In this document: positions 18,785-52,031 of the stretch, in pieces
Layout: each line of letters opens with the position of its first letter
Numbering within the stretch: the first letter of the stretch is position 1
From: a virus
Lineage: Duplodnaviria > Caudoviricetes
Virus record (IMG/VR): IMGVR_UViG_3300028596_000014
Span: 1 to 57,632 of that record
Length of the DNA stretch: 57,632 nucleotides
Strand: one strand, 5' to 3'
The notes under the pieces: generated by a model
Told to the model about the DNA's origin: nothing
What the model saw: only the letters and a program-made list of their open reading frames with translations
Database searches by the model: none
Program-made: the position numbers and the translations under genes

Positions 18785-19014
18785 TGCCCACCATCACGGC
18801 GGCTGACGTCCGGGACGCAGCCGTTCGCATCTGCGAACGCGACGGGATTTCCCTCGCTGACCTGCGCGAACGGGTGCGTCTCGGCGGCATCGCCGCCCGA
18901 ACGAAACCGTGCCAGCAGTGCGGCACGGTCTGGACGGCCGCCCGCGAGGGCGCACGTTTCTGCTCCGGCGGCTGCCGGTCGCAGTGGAACCGAGAGAACG
19001 GGAACGAATCGTGA
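18784..19014 (+). CDS. Small Zn-finger protein
   Basis: CQQCG...ARFCSGGCR. Confidence 0.65.
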   Translation: MPTITAADVRDAAVRICERDGISLADLRERVRLGGIAARTKPCQQCGTVWTAAREGARFCSGGCRSQWNRENGNES

Positions 19015-20087
19015 AGGTCGCAGTAATCCCATCCGATACGGGAGCGTGCGGATACTTCCGTCTCATCTGGCCCGCCGAGGCGGTCCGTAGCGTCCGGCCC
19101 GACTGGACCGTGAACGTTTACCGCCCGCAGGACGTGAAGGTCGGCATGGGTCCCCGGGGCGTATCCGTTCGCGGCCTGGACCTGACCGACCTGGACATGG
19201 TCGTGATGCAGCGCGTCGGCACGCCCCGGCAGGTCGACATGGCACGCGCGCTCCAGGCGGCCGGTATCGCCGTCGTCATCGACGTGGACGACGCGCTGTA
19301 CGCCATCGACCCGGACAGCGGCTCGTACGCGGCGTGGAACGACCGCCGCTCCGCGACGCACTGGTCCAACCTGGAGGAGGCCTGCCGTCGGGCGGACCTG
19401 GTCACGGTGACCACCGACGCGCTCGCGCGGCACTACGCGCGGCACAGCCGGGTCGAGCGCATCCCGAACGGGCTGCCCGACGGCGCCTACGAGGAGCCGG
19501 TGGCGCTCTCCGGGCTGACGGACCACGTCGTGCTCGGCTGGTCCGGGGTGGCCGTGTCGCACCCGCACGACCTGGAGGTCGTGGGCGCCGCTGTGGCGAA
19601 CGTTCTCGCGTCCGACCCCCAGGTGTCCGTCAAGGTCGTGGGAGACGCTGCGTGGGCCGCAGGCGTGCTCCAGGTGCCCGAGGACCGGCTCATCGACGGA
19701 GGCCTGCACCCGCTGAACTACTACCACGCCGCGCTGGCGGGTACCGACGTGGGTATGGTGCCGCTCGCGAACACCAAGTTCAACGAGGCCAAGTCGGCGC
19801 TCAAGGCGCTGGAGTACCTCGGCGTCGGTGCTCGCGTCGTCGCGAGCCGCACCCCGGCCAACGTCGAGTTGACGCTGAGCGCGGGCACGGACGCCATGTC
19901 CATCTGCACGACGCCCGAAGGGTGGGAGCGCGCGCTGCGGCAGCAGATCGCCGCCGTGCGCTGGCACCGCGAGCACGGCACGAACCCCGGACGTGACGTC
20001 TGGTACATGAGCATCCTCGGAAGGGCCGAGGAGTGGGCGGCTGCGTGGGAACGCGCGGCGGCCCGGCGGAAGAACCTGACCCGGTAG
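19011..20087 (+). CDS. GT-B (GT4-like) glycosyltransferase
   Basis: GACGYFRLIWP, VIDVDD, ADLVTVTT, IPNG, GWSG..SH..DL, FNEAKSALKALEY. Confidence 0.85.
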   Translation: MKVAVIPSDTGACGYFRLIWPAEAVRSVRPDWTVNVYRPQDVKVGMGPRGVSVRGLDLTDLDMVVMQRVGTPRQVDMARALQAAGIAVVIDVDDALYAIDPDSGSYAAWNDRRSATHWSNLEEACRRADLVTVTTDALARHYARHSRVERIPNGLPDGAYEEPVALSGLTDHVVLGWSGVAVSHPHDLEVVGAAVANVLASDPQVSVKVVGDAAWAAGVLQVPEDRLIDGGLHPLNYYHAALAGTDVGMVPLANTKFNEAKSALKALEYLGVGARVVASRTPANVELTLSAGTDAMSICTTPEGWERALRQQIAAVRWHREHGTNPGRDVWYMSILGRAEEWAAAWERAAARRKNLTR

Positions 20088-43843: not shown

Positions 43844-44037
43844 CGGGTCACCTCGACGAGGCGGATGATGATGCCCGCGATGTCGGCGTCCCGGCCGTGC
43901 ATCAGCAGGTTGGTTGCCCGCAGGCGCTGCTCGGCGGTGGTCTCGCGCCGCCCCTGGTCCGCCAGCGCTGCGCCGACGGCGCCCCGGTAGGACGGCTCCT
44001 CGTAGGTCTTGCTCCCGACCTTGACCTTGACCTTCAC
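43840..44037 (-). CDS. Hypothetical protein, 65 aa
   Basis: RBS AAGGAG. Confidence 0.65.
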   Translation of the reverse strand: MKVKVKVGSKTYEEPSYRGAVGAALADQGRRETTAEQRLRATNLLMHGRDADIAGIIIRLVEVTR

Positions 44038-44225
44038 TCGCGTGCTCCTTCTGGCTTGATCTGGATGCCGCCGATGATGACGGTCACCCCGCGACCGAGC
44101 GCATTGCGCGCGCTCCGCCGCTCATCGGACGTGGTTACGGCTGCGTGCTCGCCGCGCAGTGCGGCGGAGAGCACGTCAGCCCAGGACCGGCCCACGTAGA
44201 CGCGGCCCTGGACTGACGCCTGCAC
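44034..44225 (-). CDS. Hypothetical protein, 63 aa
   Basis: Coupled to both neighbours. Confidence 0.55.
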   Translation of the reverse strand: MQASVQGRVYVGRSWADVLSAALRGEHAAVTTSDERRSARNALGRGVTVIIGGIQIKPEGARE

Positions 44226-44395
44226 TATGGCCGCCGCTTCGGGTTGGCCGTGTGGCCGTCACCCTTGGTCTTCGCGTCCTGCATGGTGCGGACGCGGTTC
44301 GCCGTCCAGCGGCACCCGGCGACGGTGCACCAGACGAAGAACGTCTTGGTCACCTTGTCGTAGTCGAAGTCGGTGCGGTGGACCGGCTCGCTCAT
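44225..44395 (-). CDS. Hypothetical protein, 56 aa
   Basis: RBS GAGGAGG. First gene after motif copy 8. Confidence 0.7.
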   Translation of the reverse strand: MSEPVHRTDFDYDKVTKTFFVWCTVAGCRWTANRVRTMQDAKTKGDGHTANPKRRP

Positions 44396-44416
44396 GTTGA
44401 CCTCCTCGGTAGGGGT

Positions 44417-44434
44417 TGTGCTGACATACGTAAC
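44417..44434 (-). promoter_or_regulatory. 18-bp motif copy 8 (TTGCGC-N17-TAATGT)
   Basis: Exact motif. Confidence 0.9.
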
Positions 44435-44478
44435 ATTACCCCCACCGACGGGGACGCGCAACCCCGTATCGGGATGAA

Positions 44479-46083
44479 TTACCGGCCGGGGATGCGGCGC
44501 GACGTCACGCGGGCGCTGCCGGTCCGGGCGCGCTCGGGCTTCCGGGCCGCAGCCGGGTTGCCCAACTTCATCACCGCGTCGCCCTTGAGCCGCGTCTGCG
44601 CCTGCGTGTGGGCGTCCACCATGTCGTCGTGCGCGCCGGTCGGGAAGTTGCGGTGCTCGGTGAGGAACTCCGTCACCCACTCGTAGCCGGGCTCGGACGG
44701 GTGCGGGATGAGCGTGTTGCGCGCCTCCAGCGTCGGAGTGATCGCGCGGGCGCGCACCTCCTTGCCGTCGCGCGGGCTGACCGGAATCAGGCCGTCGATC
44801 TTGCGGCGCATCGTGTCGATGACCGCCGTGCCGTTGGCCTTGTCCTCGACGAGCCGAGCCGGGACGTACGGCGCGGCGAAGGCGAGCATCTCGGCCAGCG
44901 TCTGTGTGAACGTCCACCGGCCGCGCACCTGCGCCGTGAGGATCCGGTTCGGCCCGCGCCGGACCCACCGCTGCCCCACCACGTAGTCGCTGTCGCTGTT
45001 GCCCTTGAACGCGCAGTCCCACGACTCCACCCAGGTGTCGCCCGCGTGCGGGGCGATGTCGAGCAGCACGATGTCCTCGCCGTTGGCGAGCGCGGGGTTG
45101 GTCGTCCAGTAGCGCCACCACGCCATGTCGAAGATCGCTCCCCGGCTCGGAGCGGGCCGCTGCTGGTACAGCGCGGACCACACGTACGAGCCGACGTCGC
45201 GCTTGACCCCCTCCCACCGGGCCAGGGCCTCCTCAGGCGTCTCGTCCACGAGCGGGGTCAGCAGCGGCTCGCCCTCGGCTCGGCCGAGCACGTCGTCCTC
45301 CTCAGCGAGCGCCGGGAACGAGATGACCTCCCACTCGTCCGGGTCGCCCTCGTGCTCGGCCGACAGCAGCCGCCCGATGAAGTCGTCCTCGTGCCAGCGC
45401 GTGCCGATGGCGATCACCAGCGCGGGCGGCTCCAGGCGGGTGCTCGCCGTCGAGAGCCACCAGTCCCAGACGGACTGCCGCAGCACCTCGGAGTGGGCCG
45501 CCCCGAAGTCCTTGATCAGGTCGTCCAGCAGCAGCACCTTGAAGCCACGGCCGGTGATCGAGCCGCCGACGGACCGCGACAGCACCCCGCCGCCCTCGGC
45601 CGTCTCCCACTCCTGCGCGGCCCCGGCGTCGGGCGCGATGCGGATACCGAGTTCGGGGTGCTCCGTGACCCACCGGCGCACGGCGCGGCCCCACGCGGTA
45701 GACAGGCTGGCCTCATGCGAGACCATGCCGATCTTCCACTCGGGGTGGCGCCGTAGCAGCCACAGCGGCAGGTACTGGCTCGCCAGCGTGGACTTGCCCG
45801 CGCGGGGCGGCATCGAGATGGCGATGCGCCGGTTGCCGCCCGCCTCCACGTCCTTGACCGCCTGCTCCAGCCGGGCGGCGAGGTAGTCGAGGTGCGGGCG
45901 GCTGCGGTACCCGTCGTCCAACTCCTGGGCCTGCTCCAGCGGGTTGGCAGGCAGGTTGACCTGGCTCGCCGGGAGCGCGTCGAGCAGCGCGCGGGCAGCG
46001 GGCTCGGGCAGGCCGTCGAGCAGGTCGTACACCTGCTCTTCGGTGAGCCCGGCCAGCAGGCGGGTCAGTTCGTCGTCGGACAA
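44479..46083 (-). CDS. terL: Terminase large subunit
   Basis: MPPRAGKS, ITGRG..LLLDD, TRWHEDD, SALYQQRP, SWD, VEDKANG, HDDMVDA. Confidence 0.95.
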   Translation of the reverse strand: MSDDELTRLLAGLTEEQVYDLLDGLPEPAARALLDALPASQVNLPANPLEQAQELDDGYRSRPHLDYLAARLEQAVKDVEAGGNRRIAISMPPRAGKSTLASQYLPLWLLRRHPEWKIGMVSHEASLSTAWGRAVRRWVTEHPELGIRIAPDAGAAQEWETAEGGGVLSRSVGGSITGRGFKVLLLDDLIKDFGAAHSEVLRQSVWDWWLSTASTRLEPPALVIAIGTRWHEDDFIGRLLSAEHEGDPDEWEVISFPALAEEDDVLGRAEGEPLLTPLVDETPEEALARWEGVKRDVGSYVWSALYQQRPAPSRGAIFDMAWWRYWTTNPALANGEDIVLLDIAPHAGDTWVESWDCAFKGNSDSDYVVGQRWVRRGPNRILTAQVRGRWTFTQTLAEMLAFAAPYVPARLVEDKANGTAVIDTMRRKIDGLIPVSPRDGKEVRARAITPTLEARNTLIPHPSEPGYEWVTEFLTEHRNFPTGAHDDMVDAHTQAQTRLKGDAVMKLGNPAAARKPERARTGSARVTSRRIPGR

Positions 46084-46092
46084 CGGGTCTCC

Positions 46093-46881
46093 TCAGCGGA
46101 CGGGGACGGGCGGCAGATCGAGGCCGGGCAGGCGCCGCAGGGTGACCTCGGCGGTGCCCTTCGCGGCCGACCGGCGGTTGGTCAGCAGGTCGGGCCACTC
46201 TGCCACGAGTCGGTGCGTGCCTTCCTCCTGGTAGGCGGCGTCGCGGTAGACCTGCATCCCGCCCGGCTCGGTGTAGAAGCGGGTCTTGAGCGTCACGTTG
46301 TCGAGGCGGAGCACCGCGCCGTCGCGCAGGAAGTGCCGGATCGTGCGCTCGTAGTCCTCCTTCTCGTCGAAGTTCAGCACCTCGGTGGGGTCGTGGCGCA
46401 GGGTCATCCCCCAGAACGTGCCGACGATGTGCCGGAACCCGAGGTGCGCCCGGTTCGCCATGAAGTACCCGTTCCGCACGGGGTACACGCCCCACAGCGA
46501 CACACCCTGCTGCCCGGCCATGAGAAACGCACCCTGGATCAGGCCGTCCACGTTGGTCACCGACACGAGCCGCCCGGCGTCGAGCCGCTCGATGGCCCGG
46601 ATGTCGTCGTCCGCCTGCACGAGCCGGGTGCCACGCGGGTACTGCGGCTGGATCACGTTGCGGGCGCCGCGCAGGCCCGACCGGCTGCCGTGCCCGTACA
46701 CGGCGATGTCGGCGTAGCCCGCGTCGTCGAGCGCGGCGCGGTACGTGGCGACCTCCTCGTGCAGGACCCAGACGTGCACGGCACCCCGGGGCACCCCGCC
46801 GTCGAGCAGGACCGGCAGCGTGCACTTGACCAGCAGTGGCGACCGCTCCCGCGAGGGGATCGCCACGTAGTAGCCCGTCAC
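46093..46881 (-). CDS. TET-associated glycosyltransferase (TAGT-like, GT-A)
   Basis: VAIPSR.R, DDDI, WGVYP..N, EKEDYERT, PGGM. Directly downstream of the TET/JBP gene. Confidence 0.8.
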   Translation of the reverse strand: MTGYYVAIPSRERSPLLVKCTLPVLLDGGVPRGAVHVWVLHEEVATYRAALDDAGYADIAVYGHGSRSGLRGARNVIQPQYPRGTRLVQADDDIRAIERLDAGRLVSVTNVDGLIQGAFLMAGQQGVSLWGVYPVRNGYFMANRAHLGFRHIVGTFWGMTLRHDPTEVLNFDEKEDYERTIRHFLRDGAVLRLDNVTLKTRFYTEPGGMQVYRDAAYQEEGTHRLVAEWPDLLTNRRSAAKGTAEVTLRRLPGLDLPPVPVR

Positions 46882-47798
46882 GACTCGGCTGCGTTCTCGT
46901 TGCGGATCGCCGCATTGATGCGCGGCTGCCCGGTGCGCTTGCCCTGCATCAGCCGCTCTGGCTTGTAGCCGGGCGCGGCCATGCGCTCCTCCCGCTCGGT
47001 GCGCTTCCGCCGGGCGAGCGCCGTCTCAGCGGCGTAGGTGTGGCAGTCCTTGAGGCCCTGGAGCGCGTAGTAGACCACGCTGATTCGGTAGCCGCCCGGC
47101 ACGACGACGCGCATCGGGGTGACGCCGTGCACGAGCCCCTTGCCGTAGAACATCACGGCGTAGCCGTCGCGGCAGGGCACCACCATGTCGTACTCGGGGA
47201 TGTGCAGGTGCCCGCCCGCCACGCCCCGGCGCATCACGGGCATGGCCGACCACGCCTCGAAGTTGTTGCCGTCGCGGTGGTAGGGCAGCGCGGACTCGCT
47301 GTTGATGACGCCGCTGGTCCACAGGGACTCGTCGCTCAGGCGCCACTCGGGCAGCACCTTCTCGATCGTCTCCCTGTCGGCCAGTTCGATCTCCGGGAAC
47401 GCCTCACCGAGGGCCGCCCCCATCGTCTCGCTGTAGGAGACCAGGTAGGCGTGTACGTCGGGCTGCTCGTCGGCGAGCCGGGCGAGCATGCACGCCTCCT
47501 GGCCCATCATCGGCTTGCGCGGCCGGTTGCCGAACGTCCGCGACGTGTTGCGCACGCCGGACGCGCGCGGCGTCGGGCTGGAGCCGCCCATCTTCACCTG
47601 GAGGATGTTGCGCCGGAAGGCGGCCCGGTCGGGCATGGCGAGGTTGGCGAGCACGGGCGCGCCGGTGTCGGCGTCCACGTACAGCACCTCTTCGCGGAAG
47701 GTCGGGTCGAGCGCGGGCGCCTGCGTGCCGACCAGCGCGCCCGCCTCCTCGTAGGAGAGGACGCGCTGCACCGGCACGCGCGGGATGTCGCTACGCAT
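46878..47798 (-). CDS. TET/JBP-family 2OG-Fe(II) dioxygenase
   Basis: WTSGVIN..ALPYHRD (HxD), GGHL.IPE, LVHGVTP (His), YRISVVYY (2OG Arg). Confidence 0.88.
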   Translation of the reverse strand: MRSDIPRVPVQRVLSYEEAGALVGTQAPALDPTFREEVLYVDADTGAPVLANLAMPDRAAFRRNILQVKMGGSSPTPRASGVRNTSRTFGNRPRKPMMGQEACMLARLADEQPDVHAYLVSYSETMGAALGEAFPEIELADRETIEKVLPEWRLSDESLWTSGVINSESALPYHRDGNNFEAWSAMPVMRRGVAGGHLHIPEYDMVVPCRDGYAVMFYGKGLVHGVTPMRVVVPGGYRISVVYYALQGLKDCHTYAAETALARRKRTEREERMAAPGYKPERLMQGKRTGQPRINAAIRNENAAES

Positions 47799-48561
47799 CG
47801 AACGTCTCCACGCCCAGCGCCTCGCTGATCGGGTCGAAGTCGGCCGCGTCCGGCTCGGCCTCGTCGGCGGGCGCCTCAACACCGGGGAACTCCTGAGCCA
47901 GCCAGATCTGCACAGCGCCCGCGTTGTTGTCGACGCCGTAGCGCTCGCGCAGCGCCTTGAGCCGCGCCTGGATGACGGGGTACTCGCTGACGGCGTAGTC
48001 CAGGATGACGAGCCGCCGCCCCTCGGCTGCGTACGTGTCGCTGTCCTTCTTGGTCGGCACGTCGTCCTTCTTGGTGACCTTCGGCGCGGGGGTGGCGTCC
48101 AGTTCCTCCAGCCGGGCGCGCAGGTCGTCGGTGTCGTTCTCGGAGAAGCCGACGCCGGTGTAGTCGCCCAGGTTGTCGAGCAGGTCGAGCAGGCTCTCGT
48201 CCACCCAGCCGCCGAGTTCGGTGGTGCGGTTCAGCGCGATCAGCGCGGCGCGCGCCTCCGCGTCGTCCTTGGACGCCCACCCCACGATGACCGGCACGAG
48301 CCAGTGGCCGCCCGCGTCCACGCGCACGCCCTCGGGCGGAGCGTCGCCCCGGTCGCGCCGGGCCACGAGCGACTTCTTCCGCCCGTGCCCGCTGATGATG
48401 TAGCCGGTGCGGTCGTCCCGGGCGATCTGGTCGATCACGCCGAAGCGCTCCAGCGAGGCGTCGATGGTCTCCACGCTGTGGGACTTGGGGTTGGCCGGGT
48501 CCTCCAGCAGGTGGTCGAGCGGGATGTACTCCGTGCGGCGGGGAGCGGTCTCGGTCGTCAT
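47791..48561 (-). CDS. ParB/Srx-like protein
   Basis: PANPKSH, SLERFG, IISGHGR, VPV, A.AALIALNR..ELGGW. Confidence 0.88.
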   Translation of the reverse strand: MTTETAPRRTEYIPLDHLLEDPANPKSHSVETIDASLERFGVIDQIARDDRTGYIISGHGRKKSLVARRDRGDAPPEGVRVDAGGHWLVPVIVGWASKDDAEARAALIALNRTTELGGWVDESLLDLLDNLGDYTGVGFSENDTDDLRARLEELDATPAPKVTKKDDVPTKKDSDTYAAEGRRLVILDYAVSEYPVIQARLKALRERYGVDNNAGAVQIWLAQEFPGVEAPADEAEPDAADFDPISEALGVETFDA

Positions 48562-49217
48562 GCGGTGCCTCCGTAGATCTGGGCCGCCCGGTCGGGTCGG
48601 CCGCTGGTGTTCTTGCCGTGCCAGTGCCACGTCCAGGTCCGGCGGTTGAGGTGCTCGAACTTGGCCCCCAGGCCGAGCAGCCGCAGCCACAGCGCCCAGT
48701 CCTCGCAGTCGGGGTGGGGCCACGTCTCGCTGTTCGGCTCCGGGAAGCCGCCCGCCTGCACGAACAGGTCGGTGCGGACCAGCGCTGTGACCGGCACGAA
48801 GTTGGCGCTCAGCAGCCGCTCCGGGTCGAAGGGGCGGCCCTCGGCGCCGAGCGGGTCCCGGCTGTTGTCCAGGACGCCGCCCACGTTCAGGTGGAACCAC
48901 GGGTAGACGACGTCGGCCCCGGTCGCGTCGGCGTGCTCGATGAGCGCCTGGACGTGCCCCGGGTCGAACTCGTCGTCGTCGTCGAGGAAGGCGATCCACG
49001 GCGGCCGGAGGCCCGCGTTCAGGCTGTTGACCACGGCGAGGTTGCGCATGGCCGCAGGCCCCTTGCCGTCCGTGTCCACCTCGATAGCCCCGGCAACGAG
49101 CACGTCCTCGCGGATCGACTTGCACGCGCGCTTGAGCAGCGCGTCGCGGCCGGGGATGGTCGGGATGACGACGAGCGCCTGCACGTCGTCCATGGAGAGC
49201 CGCTTCGCCTCAGCCAC
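48558..49217 (-). CDS. GT2-family glycosyltransferase
   Basis: VVIPT, G.AA.RN, WIAFLDDDD, GGF, EDW.LW.RL. Confidence 0.88.
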   Translation of the reverse strand: MAEAKRLSMDDVQALVVIPTIPGRDALLKRACKSIREDVLVAGAIEVDTDGKGPAAMRNLAVVNSLNAGLRPPWIAFLDDDDEFDPGHVQALIEHADATGADVVYPWFHLNVGGVLDNSRDPLGAEGRPFDPERLLSANFVPVTALVRTDLFVQAGGFPEPNSETWPHPDCEDWALWLRLLGLGAKFEHLNRRTWTWHWHGKNTSGRPDRAAQIYGGTA

Positions 49218-49809
49218 GGAGCCGTCCTCCCTTCCACTGGAGGAACGTCACGCCGCGCGGCGTCGGCAGGCTGAGCCGGTTGAAGCCCATCTCCGCCGCC
49301 GCGTCCGCGACCTCGCGTGCGAACTGCGGGTACTTGGTCCCGGCCGGGTCGCCGCAGTCGTGCACGCCGACGATCGCGCCCGGGGTGAGCAGCGGGCGGA
49401 TGGCGCGCAGTTCGGGCACGCGCAACTCGAACAGCGAGTCGAGCCAGGCGAAGCCGACCTCGCCCGGGTTGCGCTGCTGGAGGGCCGCGAGGCCGGGCAG
49501 GCTCTCCATCTGGACCACCTGCACCGGCAGCCCTGCCACGCGGTCGGCCGTCGCGGCGACGCGCGCCGTGTCCACCTCGAACGTGACCAGGTGCCCGACG
49601 CCTGCGGTGAACAGCACCTGCCCGATCAGTTCGGCCGTCTGCCCGAAGGCGGAGCCGGTCTCGATGACCAGGTCCGGCCGCAGCGCCTCGACGAACGCGG
49701 CAGCGAGGCGGCTGACCTCAATCTCGGTCGAGTCGCTGTCCGGGCTGTGCCAGCGCTCGGGGTGCGGGCAGTCGCGACGGGACGGGGTGAAGCGGGATTC
49801 GAGTTCCAT
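49210..49809 (-). CDS. Class I SAM-dependent methyltransferase (Methyltransf_24-like, O-methyltransferase type)
   Basis: VIETGSAFG, TFEVD, FAWLDS, LTPGAIVGVHD. Confidence 0.8.
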   Translation of the reverse strand: MELESRFTPSRRDCPHPERWHSPDSDSTEIEVSRLAAAFVEALRPDLVIETGSAFGQTAELIGQVLFTAGVGHLVTFEVDTARVAATADRVAGLPVQVVQMESLPGLAALQQRNPGEVGFAWLDSLFELRVPELRAIRPLLTPGAIVGVHDCGDPAGTKYPQFAREVADAAAEMGFNRLSLPTPRGVTFLQWKGGRLRG

Positions 49810-49816
49810 GGGTTCC

Positions 49817-49999
49817 TCAGTCGTCGGTGTCAGGGGCGTCAGCCAGGTCTTCGGCCGTCGCGTCGCTGACGATGATGTGGATGACGGTGCGGCGCGGGTT
49901 GGCGAGCGAGCCGGAGGCCAGCCCCTTGGGCGGGCGCCCCGGGTCGTTGCTCGGCGGGCGCTTGCGCTTGCGCTTGCCCGTGCCCCAGCCGCCGGTCAC
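49817..49999 (-). CDS. Hypothetical protein, 60 aa
   Basis: GTGA overlap. Confidence 0.5.
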   Translation of the reverse strand: MTGGWGTGKRKRKRPPSNDPGRPPKGLASGSLANPRRTVIHIIVSDATAEDLADAPDTDD

Positions 50000-50226
50000 G
50001 GCTTCGCCCGCAACGTGAGCACGGTCATGGCCGGGACGCCGATCGTGAAGGCGCTACCCGGCCACGCGGGCTGGTGCTCCTCGATGACCTCGCCGTCGGC
50101 CACGAGCCCCAGGTCACCGAGCGCCTGGTGCAGCGAGCGCACAGCGGCCTCGCGGAACAGCGGGTCGGCCAGGAAGTCCGTGCGGTGCCGGAACGAGACC
50201 TCGCGGATCGGGGCGGCGGCCGTCAC
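49996..50226 (-). CDS. Hypothetical protein, 76 aa
   Basis: GTGA overlaps. Confidence 0.55.
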   Translation of the reverse strand: MTAAAPIREVSFRHRTDFLADPLFREAAVRSLHQALGDLGLVADGEVIEEHQPAWPGSAFTIGVPAMTVLTLRAKP

Positions 50227-50474
50227 GAGTGCATCTCGTAGTAGGTGTAGGCGCGCTCCTCCTCGGGCACGGACTCGTCGTCGGCAAGGTCGCGCCGCGT
50301 GAACGTGTCCGGGTTGACGTCGATGCCGAACTCGTTGGGGAAGAACTCCTCCAGGATGCGCTTGTAGACGCCGTCCATCTCGGGGTGCTCGTTGACGGGC
50401 TCGGTCAGGGTACGCACGCGGCCGACGGACCAGCCGTTCTCCTCGTCGTACCAGCCCCAGATCTTGTACGTCAT
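50223..50474 (-). CDS. Hypothetical acidic protein, 83 aa
   Basis: RBS GAGGAA, ATGA overlap. Confidence 0.65.
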   Translation of the reverse strand: MTYKIWGWYDEENGWSVGRVRTLTEPVNEHPEMDGVYKRILEEFFPNEFGIDVNPDTFTRRDLADDESVPEEERAYTYYEMHS

Positions 50475-50623
50475 GCGGGCTTCCTCTCGTTCCAGTAGAT
50501 GCGCCGGTCACGCACCGGGCACTCCCAGCCCTTCGCGCCGTCGAAGATGACGATGCTGCGCTTGAACGGGTCGATGTCCACCTCGCGGCCGTCCTCCGGT
50601 CCGCCGACCACCTGCGCCTTCAC
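50471..50623 (-). CDS. Hypothetical protein, 50 aa (VVGGPEDG)
   Basis: Manual translation, overlaps both neighbours. Confidence 0.55.
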   Translation of the reverse strand: MKAQVVGGPEDGREVDIDPFKRSIVIFDGAKGWECPVRDRRIYWNERKPA

Positions 50624-51018
50624 AGCGCGGCCTCCTCGTCGTCGGTCATCTCGGGCAGGTCAGCCTCGTCGCGCAGCGCGTTGATCCGCTCCACGAGCAG
50701 CGCCTTGGCGCTCTCGCCGTCGATCACGGTCGCCGTGCGCGGCACGCCTGCGCGGTCGAGCAGGCTGTTGGCGGCCCGCTGCCGGTCGGCGCTCTTGTCC
50801 GCCTGGACCATCTCGCGGGCGAGCGTGCTGATCGCCGGGTCCACCAGTTCCAGCAGCCGCAGAGCCGCCTTCCGCCGCACCTGCGGGGCGCTGCCGCCGT
50901 GCGTGGCGCACACCGTCCCGCCCTTGATCGGCGGCCGTCCGCAGGGCTGCCCGTTGGTCCGCTTGGCACTGCACAGCCTCTTTGCAGAGGTCCCTACATC
51001 CATAGGTGCATCACTCAT
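50620..51018 (-). CDS. Putative terminase small subunit (HGG Zn-finger)
   Basis: CSAK...G.PC.......C..HGG and RAANSLLDRAG, upstream of TerL. Confidence 0.65.
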   Translation of the reverse strand: MSDAPMDVGTSAKRLCSAKRTNGQPCGRPPIKGGTVCATHGGSAPQVRRKAALRLLELVDPAISTLAREMVQADKSADRQRAANSLLDRAGVPRTATVIDGESAKALLVERINALRDEADLPEMTDDEEAAL

Positions 51019-51274
51019 CGGAAGTACCCCCTATACGAAACATGCTCCCCAGCACCTCGGTAAGGTGCGGATCTGGGGCCTGCCCTACCGGGTCATGGCT
51101 CCCATCGCCGTGGGAAAAGGCCAGGCGACTCGTCGAGTAGGCCTCTACAGAAGACCGCTCCAGCCTCAGCCGGTTGCGTACCCGGCTGGACATCTTCAAC
51201 TTGCCGGACTTCGCGAGATACCAGACACGCTGGCGGGACACGCCCAGGTATTCGGCAGCCTCTTTGACTTCCAC
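51011..51274 (-). CDS. MerR/excisionase-like HTH protein
   Basis: VKEAAEYLGVSRQRV..L..SGKL. RBS AGGAGG. Confidence 0.8.
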   Translation of the reverse strand: MEVKEAAEYLGVSRQRVWYLAKSGKLKMSSRVRNRLRLERSSVEAYSTSRLAFSHGDGSHDPVGQAPDPHLTEVLGSMFRIGGTSDE

Positions 51275-51490
51275 AGCGGGTACCTCCTATACGTAACATG
51301 CGGCCGGGGAGGAGCCGCTGTAAGGGATGATACACACGCGAGCGCCCCGCCCACGCCCGTGGCCCCTGTTGGTCAGGTGGCTTGGACTAGGACGGGGCGC
51401 TCGGCTTCCCCTGGTGCTCGGGCTGTGGCTCCCGGGCTCCTGCTGTGCAGGCTAGCACCTGCTGTCGCAGAACACTTGAAACCAGGGTAC

Positions 51491-51646
51491 TTAGTACGAG
51501 CGCCGGGTCGTGCGCCGCTTGCGGCACCGCGAGCAGATCTGCCGCGTGTGCCCCGTGTGCGCGGGCCAGACCATGTCGGTGATCGAGTACAGGCGCCACC
51601 GGTGCAGCCCCAGCCAGCAGGCGTACGCCCACGTCGGGCGGCGCAT
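51491..51646 (-). CDS. Small Cys/His protein
   Basis: C.LGLHRW...CSRC. Confidence 0.55.
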   Translation of the reverse strand: MRRPTWAYACWLGLHRWRLYSITDMVWPAHTGHTRQICSRCRKRRTTRRSY

Positions 51647-51828
51647 CAGTGCTGCCCGTGGCACTTGAAGCCCTCGCAGGCCGGGCACCAGTCCTCGGTC
51701 TTGGCGCGGTTCTGCGTCCACCCCTTGCGCGCGGCTGCGGCACGGGCGGTGGCCGCGTCGCGGGCCGCCGTCGGGATGCCCCGGCCGCAGCAGTCGCACC
51801 GCAGGTGCGTCGCCTTCCAGGCGGTCAT
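51646..51828 (-). CDS. Small Zn-finger protein
   Basis: CDCCG...GW...DWCPAC. Confidence 0.65.
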   Translation of the reverse strand: MTAWKATHLRCDCCGRGIPTAARDAATARAAAARKGWTQNRAKTEDWCPACEGFKCHGQH

Positions 51829-52031
51829 CGGAACCTCGCCTGCGGGTGGCTGTGCTCGCTCATCGGCTCCAGGTGGACCTGGAACGTGCCCGCCGCCAGG
51901 TGCAGCACGCGCTTGACCAGCCGGTGCGTGCGGTGCGCGGTAACCAGGCGCGCCTGCGTGGCGCCGTCGGCCCCGCGCACCTCCACCAGGTTCTCGTTGA
52001 TGAACTTGATACGGACCTCGGCGTTGCTCAC
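51825..52031 (-). CDS. Hypothetical protein, 68 aa
   Basis: RBS AGGAGG. Confidence 0.6.
   Translation of the reverse strand: MSNAEVRIKFINENLVEVRGADGATQARLVTAHRTHRLVKRVLHLAAGTFQVHLEPMSEHSHPQARFR

Follow-up and report, generated by a model that had tools for sequence, protein, structure and literature searches.

A terminase-adjacent ParB-TET-TAGT locus in an uncultured actinobacterial phage: a putative thymine hypermodification module beside an apparently movable methyltransferase-glycosyltransferase cassette

The IMG/VR record IMGVR_UViG_3300028596_000014 comes from an uncultured actinobacterial phage and is 92% complete by CheckV; the window analysed here is the whole record, 57.6 kb in length. 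Directly upstream of its large terminase gene, a dioxygenase of the TET/JBP type is encoded together with a ParB-like protein, two glycosyltransferases and a methyltransferase. The question raised by this locus is what these five products would make, and whether they would make it in a single pathway. On balance, the locus probably joins two separable modules, adjacent and translationally coupled here: a ParB-TET-TAGT module for DNA hypermodification and an MT-GT2 glycan cassette.

Organisation of the locus

The five genes lie on the minus strand in the order given by the initial annotation, all directly upstream of terL. They encode a class I SAM-dependent O-methyltransferase-like protein (MT; 199 aa, positions 49210–49809), a family-2 (GT-A) glycosyltransferase (GT2; 219 aa, 48558–49217), a ParB-like partner protein (256 aa, 47791–48561), a TET/JBP-type 5-methylpyrimidine dioxygenase (5mYOX) that is predicted to hydroxylate thymine (TET; 306 aa, 46878–47798) and a glycosyltransferase of the TET-associated (TAGT) family with a DDD motif (262 aa, 46093–46881). 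Successive genes overlap by 8, 4, 8 and 4 nt, and 9 nt separate the end of TAGT from terL (44479–46083, minus strand), the product of which matches Terminase_6N/6C at 1e-10 and phrog_38 at 4e-93. The gene for a third, GT-B-like glycosyltransferase, g31, lies on the plus strand at 19011–20087 (phrog_7162, 4e-30; Glyco_trans_1_4, weak).

The cluster had been placed between TerS and TerL. It does adjoin terL, but the TerS label is unproven: the minus-strand gene at 50620–51018 encodes an HGGxSTG-domain protein (NF041373, 9e-7, just below the cut-off), and its PHROG matches are all to families of unknown function. Among the 38 phage-record matches listed, every homologue covering approximately 80% of this protein is annotated 'hypothetical protein', and the two matches labelled as small terminases share its N-terminal motif only (29–36% of the query). 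Four small ORFs separate it from the MT gene.

The dioxygenase and its ParB-like partner

The true start of TET is residue Met29 of a 334-aa open reading frame. The protein matches phrog_6059 at 4e-78; its match to PF12851 (E 0.0064, 16.2 bits) lies below the gathering cut-off of 34.9, and PF12851 is present in many TET homologues, for example at 82–85% identity. The HxD..H..R motif was initially described as intact, and residues His174, Asp176, His224 and Arg238, as well as Cys252, are indeed invariant in an alignment of 43 sequences; His224 and Arg238 also align with NgTET1 and TET2. When the AF2 model of TET (pLDDT 85.5) was compared with the PDB by Foldseek, the best 26 ranks (18 rows listed) were TET-family structures at 1e-11 to 6e-9, including NgTET1 (1e-11), CcTet, CMD1 and hTET2, and the next matches were AlkB/FTO at 3e-6. 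A further 54 residues, conserved helix included, follow Cys252. According to O'Toole et al. (PNAS 2026, PMC13229309), a C-terminal extension is confined to the ParB-dependent 5mYOX enzymes; the tail seen here conforms to that pattern and supports coupling to ParB.

Of 80 IMG/VR loci fetched among 371 relatives, 65 include 800 nt or more upstream of TET, and in every one of these a ParB-like gene stands directly before it. The ParB-like protein of the present locus matches PHROG ParB families at 1e-19 to 1e-22, and has no match in Pfam and none in the PDB by sequence. The structural model is confident for residues 1–155, falls below pLDDT 50 for residues 160–183 and is helical for residues 185–225, predicting a ParB/CTPase-like domain at the N terminus that a disordered linker joins to a small helical domain at the C terminus. 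The best Foldseek rows to rank 22 (15 listed) were ParB, Noc, KorB or PadC, all weak fold matches (E 1e-3 to 0.07, TM approximately 0.3). The predicted architecture resembles that of the ParB proteins described by O'Toole et al., with an N-terminal domain, a linker, a C-terminal domain and no evident DNA-binding domain. The initial annotation proposed that ParB targets the modification on DNA; this proposal fits poorly with the published 5mYOX partners, which are described as being without a DNA-binding domain (PMC13229309), and with the present model, in which no helix-turn-helix domain is seen and the 256 residues would leave no space for another.

Complex prediction for ParB and TET gave a score of 0.47, as against 0.00 for the best of three controls, with at least 30% of contacts agreeing between runs and a partner pLDDT of at least 69. 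Of 80 solved complexes, 58 attained the mark used for such predictions, as did 2 of 110 mismatched pairs; scores of 0.60 or less at the mark belonged to 7 of the 80 solved complexes and to both passing mismatches. The prediction weakly favours a partnership. As had been noted initially, ParB-TET pairs occur beside terminases in actinophages: in cultured phages of Microbacterium, Gordonia and Mycobacterium, gp1 is ParB and gp2 is TET, with the terminase coming after them.

Predicted substrate and product

Profile searches, in which the controls responded, returned no match to PF00145, PF00303, PF01555 or PF02086 in the 57.6-kb record. Its initially reported lack of a C5-cytosine methyltransferase and a dNMP hydroxymethylase was thereby borne out, including by the DNA methylase profile that had been suggested as a check (PF00145); no thymidylate-synthase homologue was found either. 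PF00145 is likewise unmatched in 28 of 28 ParB-TET-TAGT records, a set that includes seven with a completeness of 90% or more. In the survey of O'Toole et al. (PMC13229309; preprint 10.1101/2025.08.14.668559), a C5-methyltransferase occurred in only 6% of mined 5mYOX pathways, and glycosyltransferases, ParBs, terminases and O-methyltransferases were frequent 5mYOX neighbours. The same work describes ParB-dependent phage thymine dioxygenases in 5mYOX clade C1, such as 5mYOX176/ParB176. Phage enzymes of this arrangement make 5-hydroxymethyluracil (5hmU) from thymine post-replicatively, and the ParB-dependent enzymes did so in Escherichia coli only when ParB was co-expressed.

The present locus shares with these systems a C-terminally extended TET/JBP dioxygenase, an adjacent ParB-like gene, the absence of a C5-methyltransferase and the juxtaposition of terminase and hypermodification genes. 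As judged from sequence, ParB-TET-TAGT matches this already published class. Given that match, and with TAGT following TET in a ParB-coupled lineage free of C5-methyltransferases, the initial reading, in which thymine becomes 5hmU and this in turn glycosyl-5hmU, appears well supported. The novelty first claimed for the locus is not supported: the ParB-TET class was published in 2025–26, and labels such as 'thymidine hydroxylase' and 'Tet-like J-binding protein' are already found in the annotation of cultured actinophages.

TAGT matches phrog_25200 at 2e-36 and PF20691 over the full profile length at E 3e-4 (21.2 bits, below the cut-off of 27.5); PF20691 matches 40 of 40 aligned TAGT homologues, the best at 4.7e-16. 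Residues Asp91, Asp92 and Asp93, an acidic DxD-type motif of GT-A enzymes, are invariant among the aligned homologues, and a sequence search found no related solved structure. In 27 of 79 IMG/VR loci the gene after TET is of the TAGT type, a share of about one-third among the nearest ParB-TET loci; in this position TAGT alternates with kinase or transferase genes, types known from thymidine hypermodification. In 11 cultured phage records with both matches listed, 46–344 nt lie between the end of the TET match and the start of the TAGT match. With TAGT as the next enzyme, the locus departs from the ParB-dependent subclass as characterised by O'Toole et al. (PMC13229309), for which kinases, amidotransferases and amino-acid transferases are the main associates, glycosyltransferases being tied more to the ParB-independent clade.

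It is proposed that ParB-TET-TAGT most likely turns thymine in phage DNA into a sugar-capped base. The module would be expressed late and act post-replicatively: the ParB-like protein would activate the Fe(II)/2-oxoglutarate dioxygenase, which would convert thymine into 5hmU, an activity and a dependence taken from the literature on enzymes of this arrangement, and the TAGT-family GT-A transferase would add a sugar to the 5hmU hydroxyl. The resulting base-J-like glycosyl-5hmU would arise shortly before packaging or in the course of it, and would probably blunt host nucleases, serving as an anti-restriction measure.

In kinetoplastids, JBP1 and JBP2 hydroxylate DNA thymine post-replicatively, and the base-J glucosyltransferase then glycosylates the hydroxyl. 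The pathway proposed here, known from its genes, would follow the same order of thymine hydroxylation and glycosylation after replication; unlike the base J system, it has no J-binding or SWI2/SNF2 domains, and it employs a ParB-like helper and a phage TAGT-family transferase. A literature search found no paper identifying glycosyl-5hmU in phage DNA, and the literature identifies no natural end product for the branch of ParB-TET systems, themselves characterised only in 2025–26, that continues with a glycosyltransferase. Comparable cassettes occur in cultured actinophages: Arthrobacter phage Altadena (gp60/62/63), Mycobacterium phages Acadian and Baee (gp1–3) and Microbacterium phages MementoMori and Kozie carry homologous ParB and TET (44–61% identity) in the same order, mostly before the terminase. 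The TAGT proteins of Altadena and Acadian are 38–44% identical to that encoded here, whereas MementoMori, Kozie and Prince have kinase or transferase genes in its position. Altadena, Acadian and Baee are therefore tractable phages in which to seek a bacterial-virus counterpart of base J.

The dioxygenase could instead oxidise 5-methylcytosine (5mC) made by a host methyltransferase, yielding glycosyl-5hmC. Oxidation of 5mC is known for phage TETs of clades A/B, and phage C5-methyltransferase/TET/glycosyltransferase clusters make glucosylated 5hmC (Burke et al., PNAS 2021, PMC8256090), a scheme that resembles the present locus in that a TET-family oxygenase is followed by one or more glycosyltransferases acting on DNA after replication. 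Moreover, 5mC enzymes are the best structural matches of the TET model, and the characterised T-dioxygenases also act on 5mC in vitro (PMC13229309). However, the phage 5mC-type TETs described by Burke et al. accompany and need a co-encoded C5-methyltransferase, which this record and the 28 related ones lack, and the ParB-linked enzymes gave 5hmU from thymine in E. coli, leaving 5mC an improbable substrate. There is also a very small chance that the ParB-TET mark is confined to a handful of thymines and signals regulation or packaging, while the TAGT-like enzyme glycosylates a non-DNA target. The cluster abuts terL, and O'Toole et al. (PMC13229309) suggest epigenetic-like roles in connection with partial, sequence-selective oxidation; the alternation of TAGT-type genes with kinase and transferase hypermodification genes right after TET, and the match of all 40 TAGT homologues to the TET-associated family PF20691, both count against this reading.

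The methyltransferase-glycosyltransferase pair

GT2 matches PF00535 at 6e-9 and phrog_14775 at 5e-26. MT matches Methyltransf_24 at 5e-7, above the Pfam cut-off, and CmcI/rhamnosyl O-methyltransferases weakly (3e-4), and its nearest Atlas clusters are viral Methyltransf_24/Methyltransf_3. No MT homologue was found in 50,697 phage records; GT2 matched nine phage records (Streptomyces, four; Arthrobacter, four; other, one). Streptomyces phage KimJongPhill carries a GT-MT-GT trio, and there are no Streptomyces phages among the 100 TET matches listed.

The initial annotation proposed that all five enzymes act on DNA, glycosyl-5hmU being extended with a second sugar by GT2 and then O-methylated by MT. 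The genes overlap as one transcription unit, the order MT-GT2-ParB-TET recurs in the relative L003/G011, both modules are found in each of the three nearest relatives, and O-methyltransferases and secondary glycosyltransferases are listed in the literature near 5mYOX and DNA-glycosyltransferase pathways. The pair nevertheless dissociates from ParB-TET-TAGT in both directions. MT or GT2 homologues occur in only 2 of the 28 ParB-TET-TAGT records; MT-GT2 is missing from 26, including six of the seven that are at least 90% complete, and is adjacent to TET in only 1 of 80 loci, and the cultured cassettes have no such pair beside ParB. In the relative G010, ParB-TET-TAGT-TerL stands without MT-GT2, which lies 27 kb off as g31-MT-GT2-g32, the pair directly following the g31 homologue; g31 itself is present in G001, G002, G005, G010 and G011. 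Conversely, G002 (92% complete) carries MT and GT2 (79% and 55% identity) and G004 (100% complete) carries MT only, both without TET in a search whose positive control, G010, scored 1.5e-142, and both without a match to PF00303. The methylated-disaccharide extension is therefore unsupported and a five-enzyme DNA pathway unlikely; by this distribution MT-GT2 behaves as a separate, movable cassette.

Under the preferred two-module reading, MT-GT2 together with the distant g31 would build an O-methylated glycan on an acceptor independent of TET, virion proteins being the likeliest by analogy. Mycobacteriophage virion glycosylation operons, as described by Freeman et al. (2023, via PMC11600133), have an O-methyltransferase gene in tandem with glycosyltransferase genes. 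They serve as a model for MT-GT2-g31 in gene arrangement only, GT2 and MT having no detectable mycobacteriophage homologues in the phage-record search. The split cautions against assigning every neighbouring sugar gene to the DNA pathway.

In both the window and G011, the GT2 stop overlaps the ParB start, coupling MT-GT2 translationally to ParB. This coupling, and the presence of both modules in the three nearest relatives, leave some chance that the pair has been recruited functionally to the DNA pathway. It is conceivable, if doubtful, that MT-GT2 was captured into the ParB-TET-TAGT operon in this record and G011, and with g31 makes an O-methylated oligosaccharide on 5hmU. Such a DNA base would be one not described before, and its sugars would differ among sister phages, since G011 encodes a divergent TAGT alongside a UDP-galactopyranose mutase.

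Layout of the locus and identity of the dioxygenase

The record comprises 57,632 bases with approximately 70% G+C and a CheckV completeness of 92%, and its minus strand holds almost all genes from 51018 down to approximately 20663. The initial annotation described five overlapping genes at 46093–49809, directly ahead of terL, and all five proved to be real. On the minus strand they are MT, encoding a class I SAM-dependent methyltransferase (49210–49809; Methyltransf_24, 5e-7); GT2, encoding a family-2 glycosyltransferase (48558–49217; PF00535, 6e-9); a ParB-like gene (47791–48561; PHROG ParB families near 1e-22, no Pfam match); a TET/JBP dioxygenase gene (46878–47798; phrog_6059, 4e-78; PF12851, only 0.0064); and a TAGT-like (TET-associated glycosyltransferase) gene (46093–46881; phrog_25200, 2e-36; PF20691, 3e-4 over the full profile). 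The successive overlaps are 8, 4, 8 and 4 nt, and TAGT ends 9 nt before terL (44479–46083, minus strand). Pfam scores for TET and TAGT fall under the curated cut-offs, and an NCBIfam search returned no family for ParB, TET or TAGT.

A search at E ≤ 1e-5 gave 975 relatives of the dioxygenase. Across the 43 that were aligned, residues H174, D176, H224, R238 and C252 are invariant, and the helix following C252 is conserved. AlphaFold models the protein with confidence (pLDDT 85.5), and the model's PDB fold matches at ranks 1–26 are TET-family throughout (NgTET1 at 1e-11, CcTet, CMD1 and human TET2), followed by AlkB/FTO at 3e-6. The family is widely labelled 'queuine tRNA-ribosyltransferase' or 'DpdA-like', both in PHROGs (phrog_6059) and in sequence records, for example RefSeq NC_047987.1 gene 2. 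That label was rejected because fold and motif evidence contradicts it; it is probably a propagated misannotation.

The ParB-TET-TAGT core and its proposed product

A profile scan of IMG/VR yielded 371 dioxygenase relatives, and the best 80 loci were fetched and annotated with TET, ParB and TAGT profiles and single-protein queries. Among these best 80, a ParB-like gene directly precedes TET in each of the 65 whose upstream sequence spans 800 nt or more. The gene after TET was surveyed in the 79 loci whose downstream sequence spans 1000 nt or more: 27 have a TAGT-type gene there, 24 a homologue of Kozie gp2 or Prince gp3, 10 a kinase-like gene and 18 an unrecognised one. Prince gp3, from Mycobacterium phage Prince, is annotated 'DNA glycosylase' and has a kinase gene next to it. 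TerL lies near TET in at least 11 of 54 loci, a count that is too low since the search used just two terminase queries. The dioxygenase matches in cultured phages (100 records) are from phages of Mycobacterium (64), Microbacterium (15), Arthrobacter (8), Gordonia (7) and others, usually with ParB as gp1 and TET as gp2, both before the terminase; 'thymidine hydroxylase' and 'Tet-like J-binding protein' are among the annotations.

The absence of a C5-cytosine methyltransferase (C5-MT) from the genome, noted initially from the sequence, is borne out by profile searches. The record gave no match to PF00145 (DNA_methylase), PF00303 (Thymidylat_synt), PF01555 (N6_N4_Mtase) or PF02086 (MethyltransfD12), and control genomes responded each time; by these searches, neither 5-methylcytosine nor ready-made hydroxymethyl bases have a source in it. 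Likewise, no C5-MT was found in any of the 28 records in which TAGT follows TET, a comparison set that is partly incomplete (7 of the 28 reach 90% completeness or more).

O'Toole et al. (PNAS 2026, PMC13229309) describe phage 5-methylpyrimidine dioxygenases (5mYOXs) without a neighbouring C5-MT as thymine dioxygenases, and report a C5-MT in only 6% of 5mYOX pathways. Common 5mYOX neighbours in their account are glycosyltransferases (31%), ParBs (27%) and terminases (19%), and also O-methyltransferases. One 5mYOX subclass requires a co-encoded ParB-like protein with a nucleotide-binding and a C-terminal domain but no evident domain for DNA binding. A C-terminal extension is confined to this subclass, which the text links chiefly to kinases and transferases rather than glycosyltransferases. 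Pyle et al. (preprint 10.1101/2023.12.21.572611) had already proposed that many glycosyltransferase-linked 5mYOXs make 5-hydroxymethyluracil (5hmU), and Burke et al. 2021 (PMC8256090) showed 5mC-type phage TETs to travel with a methyltransferase of their own. In light of this literature, the central proposal of the initial annotation, thymine hydroxylation giving a glycosyl-5hmU, is already a published class, and the core of this phage is not a new kind.

It is proposed that a ParB-dependent thymine dioxygenase acts first and is followed by the TAGT transferase. The most likely product would be a base-J-like glycosyl-5hmU, formed late and encoded beside the packaging genes. The constant ParB partner, the lack of C5-MT and the published class all support hydroxylation followed by glycosylation. 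The literature search found no chemical identification of glycosyl-5hmU from a phage. A glycosyl-5-hydroxycytosine route, as described in PMC13326640, was rejected because it needs a thymidylate-synthase homologue; none was found here or in five other MT-GT2-bearing records, including two near-complete ones that lack TET.

The MT-GT2 pair as a separate cassette

The initial annotation also suggested that GT2 and MT extend the base to a methylated disaccharide, and this part is unsupported. All six genes occur in three close relatives, namely this record, G010 (the virus record of fetched locus L002) and G011 (that of L003), in differing order. G011 has MT-GT2-ParB-TET, as in the window. In G010, p132 and two small ORFs precede ParB-TET-TAGT-TerL with no MT-GT2 there, and the METHYLTRANSFERASE-GT2 pair lies approximately 27 kb away in the order g31-MT-GT2-g32. 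In the window, g31, a third glycosyltransferase gene (19011–20087, plus strand; phrog_7162, 4e-30), sits directly before g32 (from 20107) with a gap of only 19 nt; in G010 the pair fits exactly between them (L010:4928-7441). MT-GT2 therefore behaves as a cleanly relocated two-gene cassette. Distant matches to g31 occur in 60 Escherichia phage records (approximately 28% identity over 61% of its length), including phAPEC8 and three named Phapecoctavirus.

The pair and TET dissociate in both directions. No MT or GT2 homologue was found in the other 26 ParB-TET-TAGT records, and MT-GT2 adjoins the TET locus in only 1 of the best 80 of 371 loci. Conversely, virus record G002 (92% complete) carries MT (79% identity), GT2 (55%) and a g31-like glycosyltransferase, and G004 (100% complete) carries MT only; the TET profile found nothing in either (positive control G010, 1.5e-142), nor was a thymidylate-synthase homologue found in either. 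Among cultured phages, Streptomyces phage KimJongPhill has a GT2 homologue within a GT-MT-GT trio, and no Streptomyces phage is among the 100 TET matches; the MT protein matched nothing in the phage collection. This dissociation argues that the cassette's acceptor is independent of TET-made 5hmU.

The likeliest analogy may be with cluster O mycobacteriophages, in which tandem O-methyltransferase and glycosyltransferase genes are described as modifying capsid and tail-tube proteins (PMC11600133, citing Freeman et al. 2023). The likeness lies in the tandem gene arrangement, whereas the phage-collection search gave no sequence homology of MT or GT2 to those genes. The boldest reading remaining is capture of MT-GT2 into the DNA pathway, yielding a five-step methylated-disaccharide base. 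It retains some weight because in both this phage and G011 translation of the pair is coupled to that of ParB, but the two-way dissociation from TET makes it unlikely.

The ParB-like partner, the proposed DNA-linked sugar and the small terminase candidate

Searches with the ParB-like protein found no match in the PDB (by single sequence or profile) or in Pfam. In its model a confident N-terminal domain (residues 1–155) is followed by a disordered linker (160–183) and a small helical domain at the C terminus; the best fold matches, as far as rank 22, are the N-terminal domains of ParB, Noc, KorB and PadC, all weak (E of 1e-3 to 0.07). The predicted ParB-TET complex scored 0.47, against 0.00 for the best of three controls, with at least 30% of contacts in agreement between runs and a partner pLDDT of at least 69. 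Of 80 solved complexes, 58 pass the mark applied, as do 2 of 110 mismatched pairs; at scores of 0.60 or below, only 7 of the 80 pass, together with both of those mismatches. The prediction lends weak support to the pairing. Repeats in 44000–52000 were chance-like matches in GC-rich DNA, and no parS-like site stood out. Many relatives have two tandem ParB-like genes before TET (L039, L044-L047, L050, L057, L066, L070 and L073), and MementoMori has one at each genome end, gp97 and gp1 (L004, L005).

A PDB sequence search with the TAGT profile gave no match. Each of the 40 TAGT homologues in the alignment matches PF20691, and their acidic DDD motif is invariant. TAGT matches occur in 20 cultured-phage records; in the 11 with both matches listed, the TAGT match starts 46–344 nt past the end of the TET match. 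Arthrobacter phage Altadena (L008) has the order gp60 ParB, gp62 TET, gp63 glycosyltransferase and gp64 deacetylase. A 'glucosaminyl deacetylase' homologue follows TAGT in some relatives (Altadena gp63-64; L088:8913-10806), in L088 with a kinase as well, which hints at amino-sugar or mixed modifications. In G011, a UDP-galactopyranose mutase gene (GLF, 1e-68) lies between a divergent TAGT (33% identical to that of the window; PF20691, 7e-9) and terL (L003:8942-10887). This gene content points to galactofuranose on the DNA of the sister phage, and the sugar may thus differ between close relatives. The window has no homologues of the relatives' kinase, amino-acid-transferase-like, deacetylase or galactopyranose-mutase genes.

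Upstream of MT, beyond four small ORFs, lies the gene initially labelled TerS (50620–51018, minus strand). The only matches of its product are to an HGGxSTG domain and to PHROGs without an assigned function, and nearly all its phage homologues are annotated hypothetical; the label is unproven but plausible, and the protein is a possible small terminase. It is kept in Microbacterium phages, and a homologue is the first gene in some Arthrobacter and Bacillus phage genomes.
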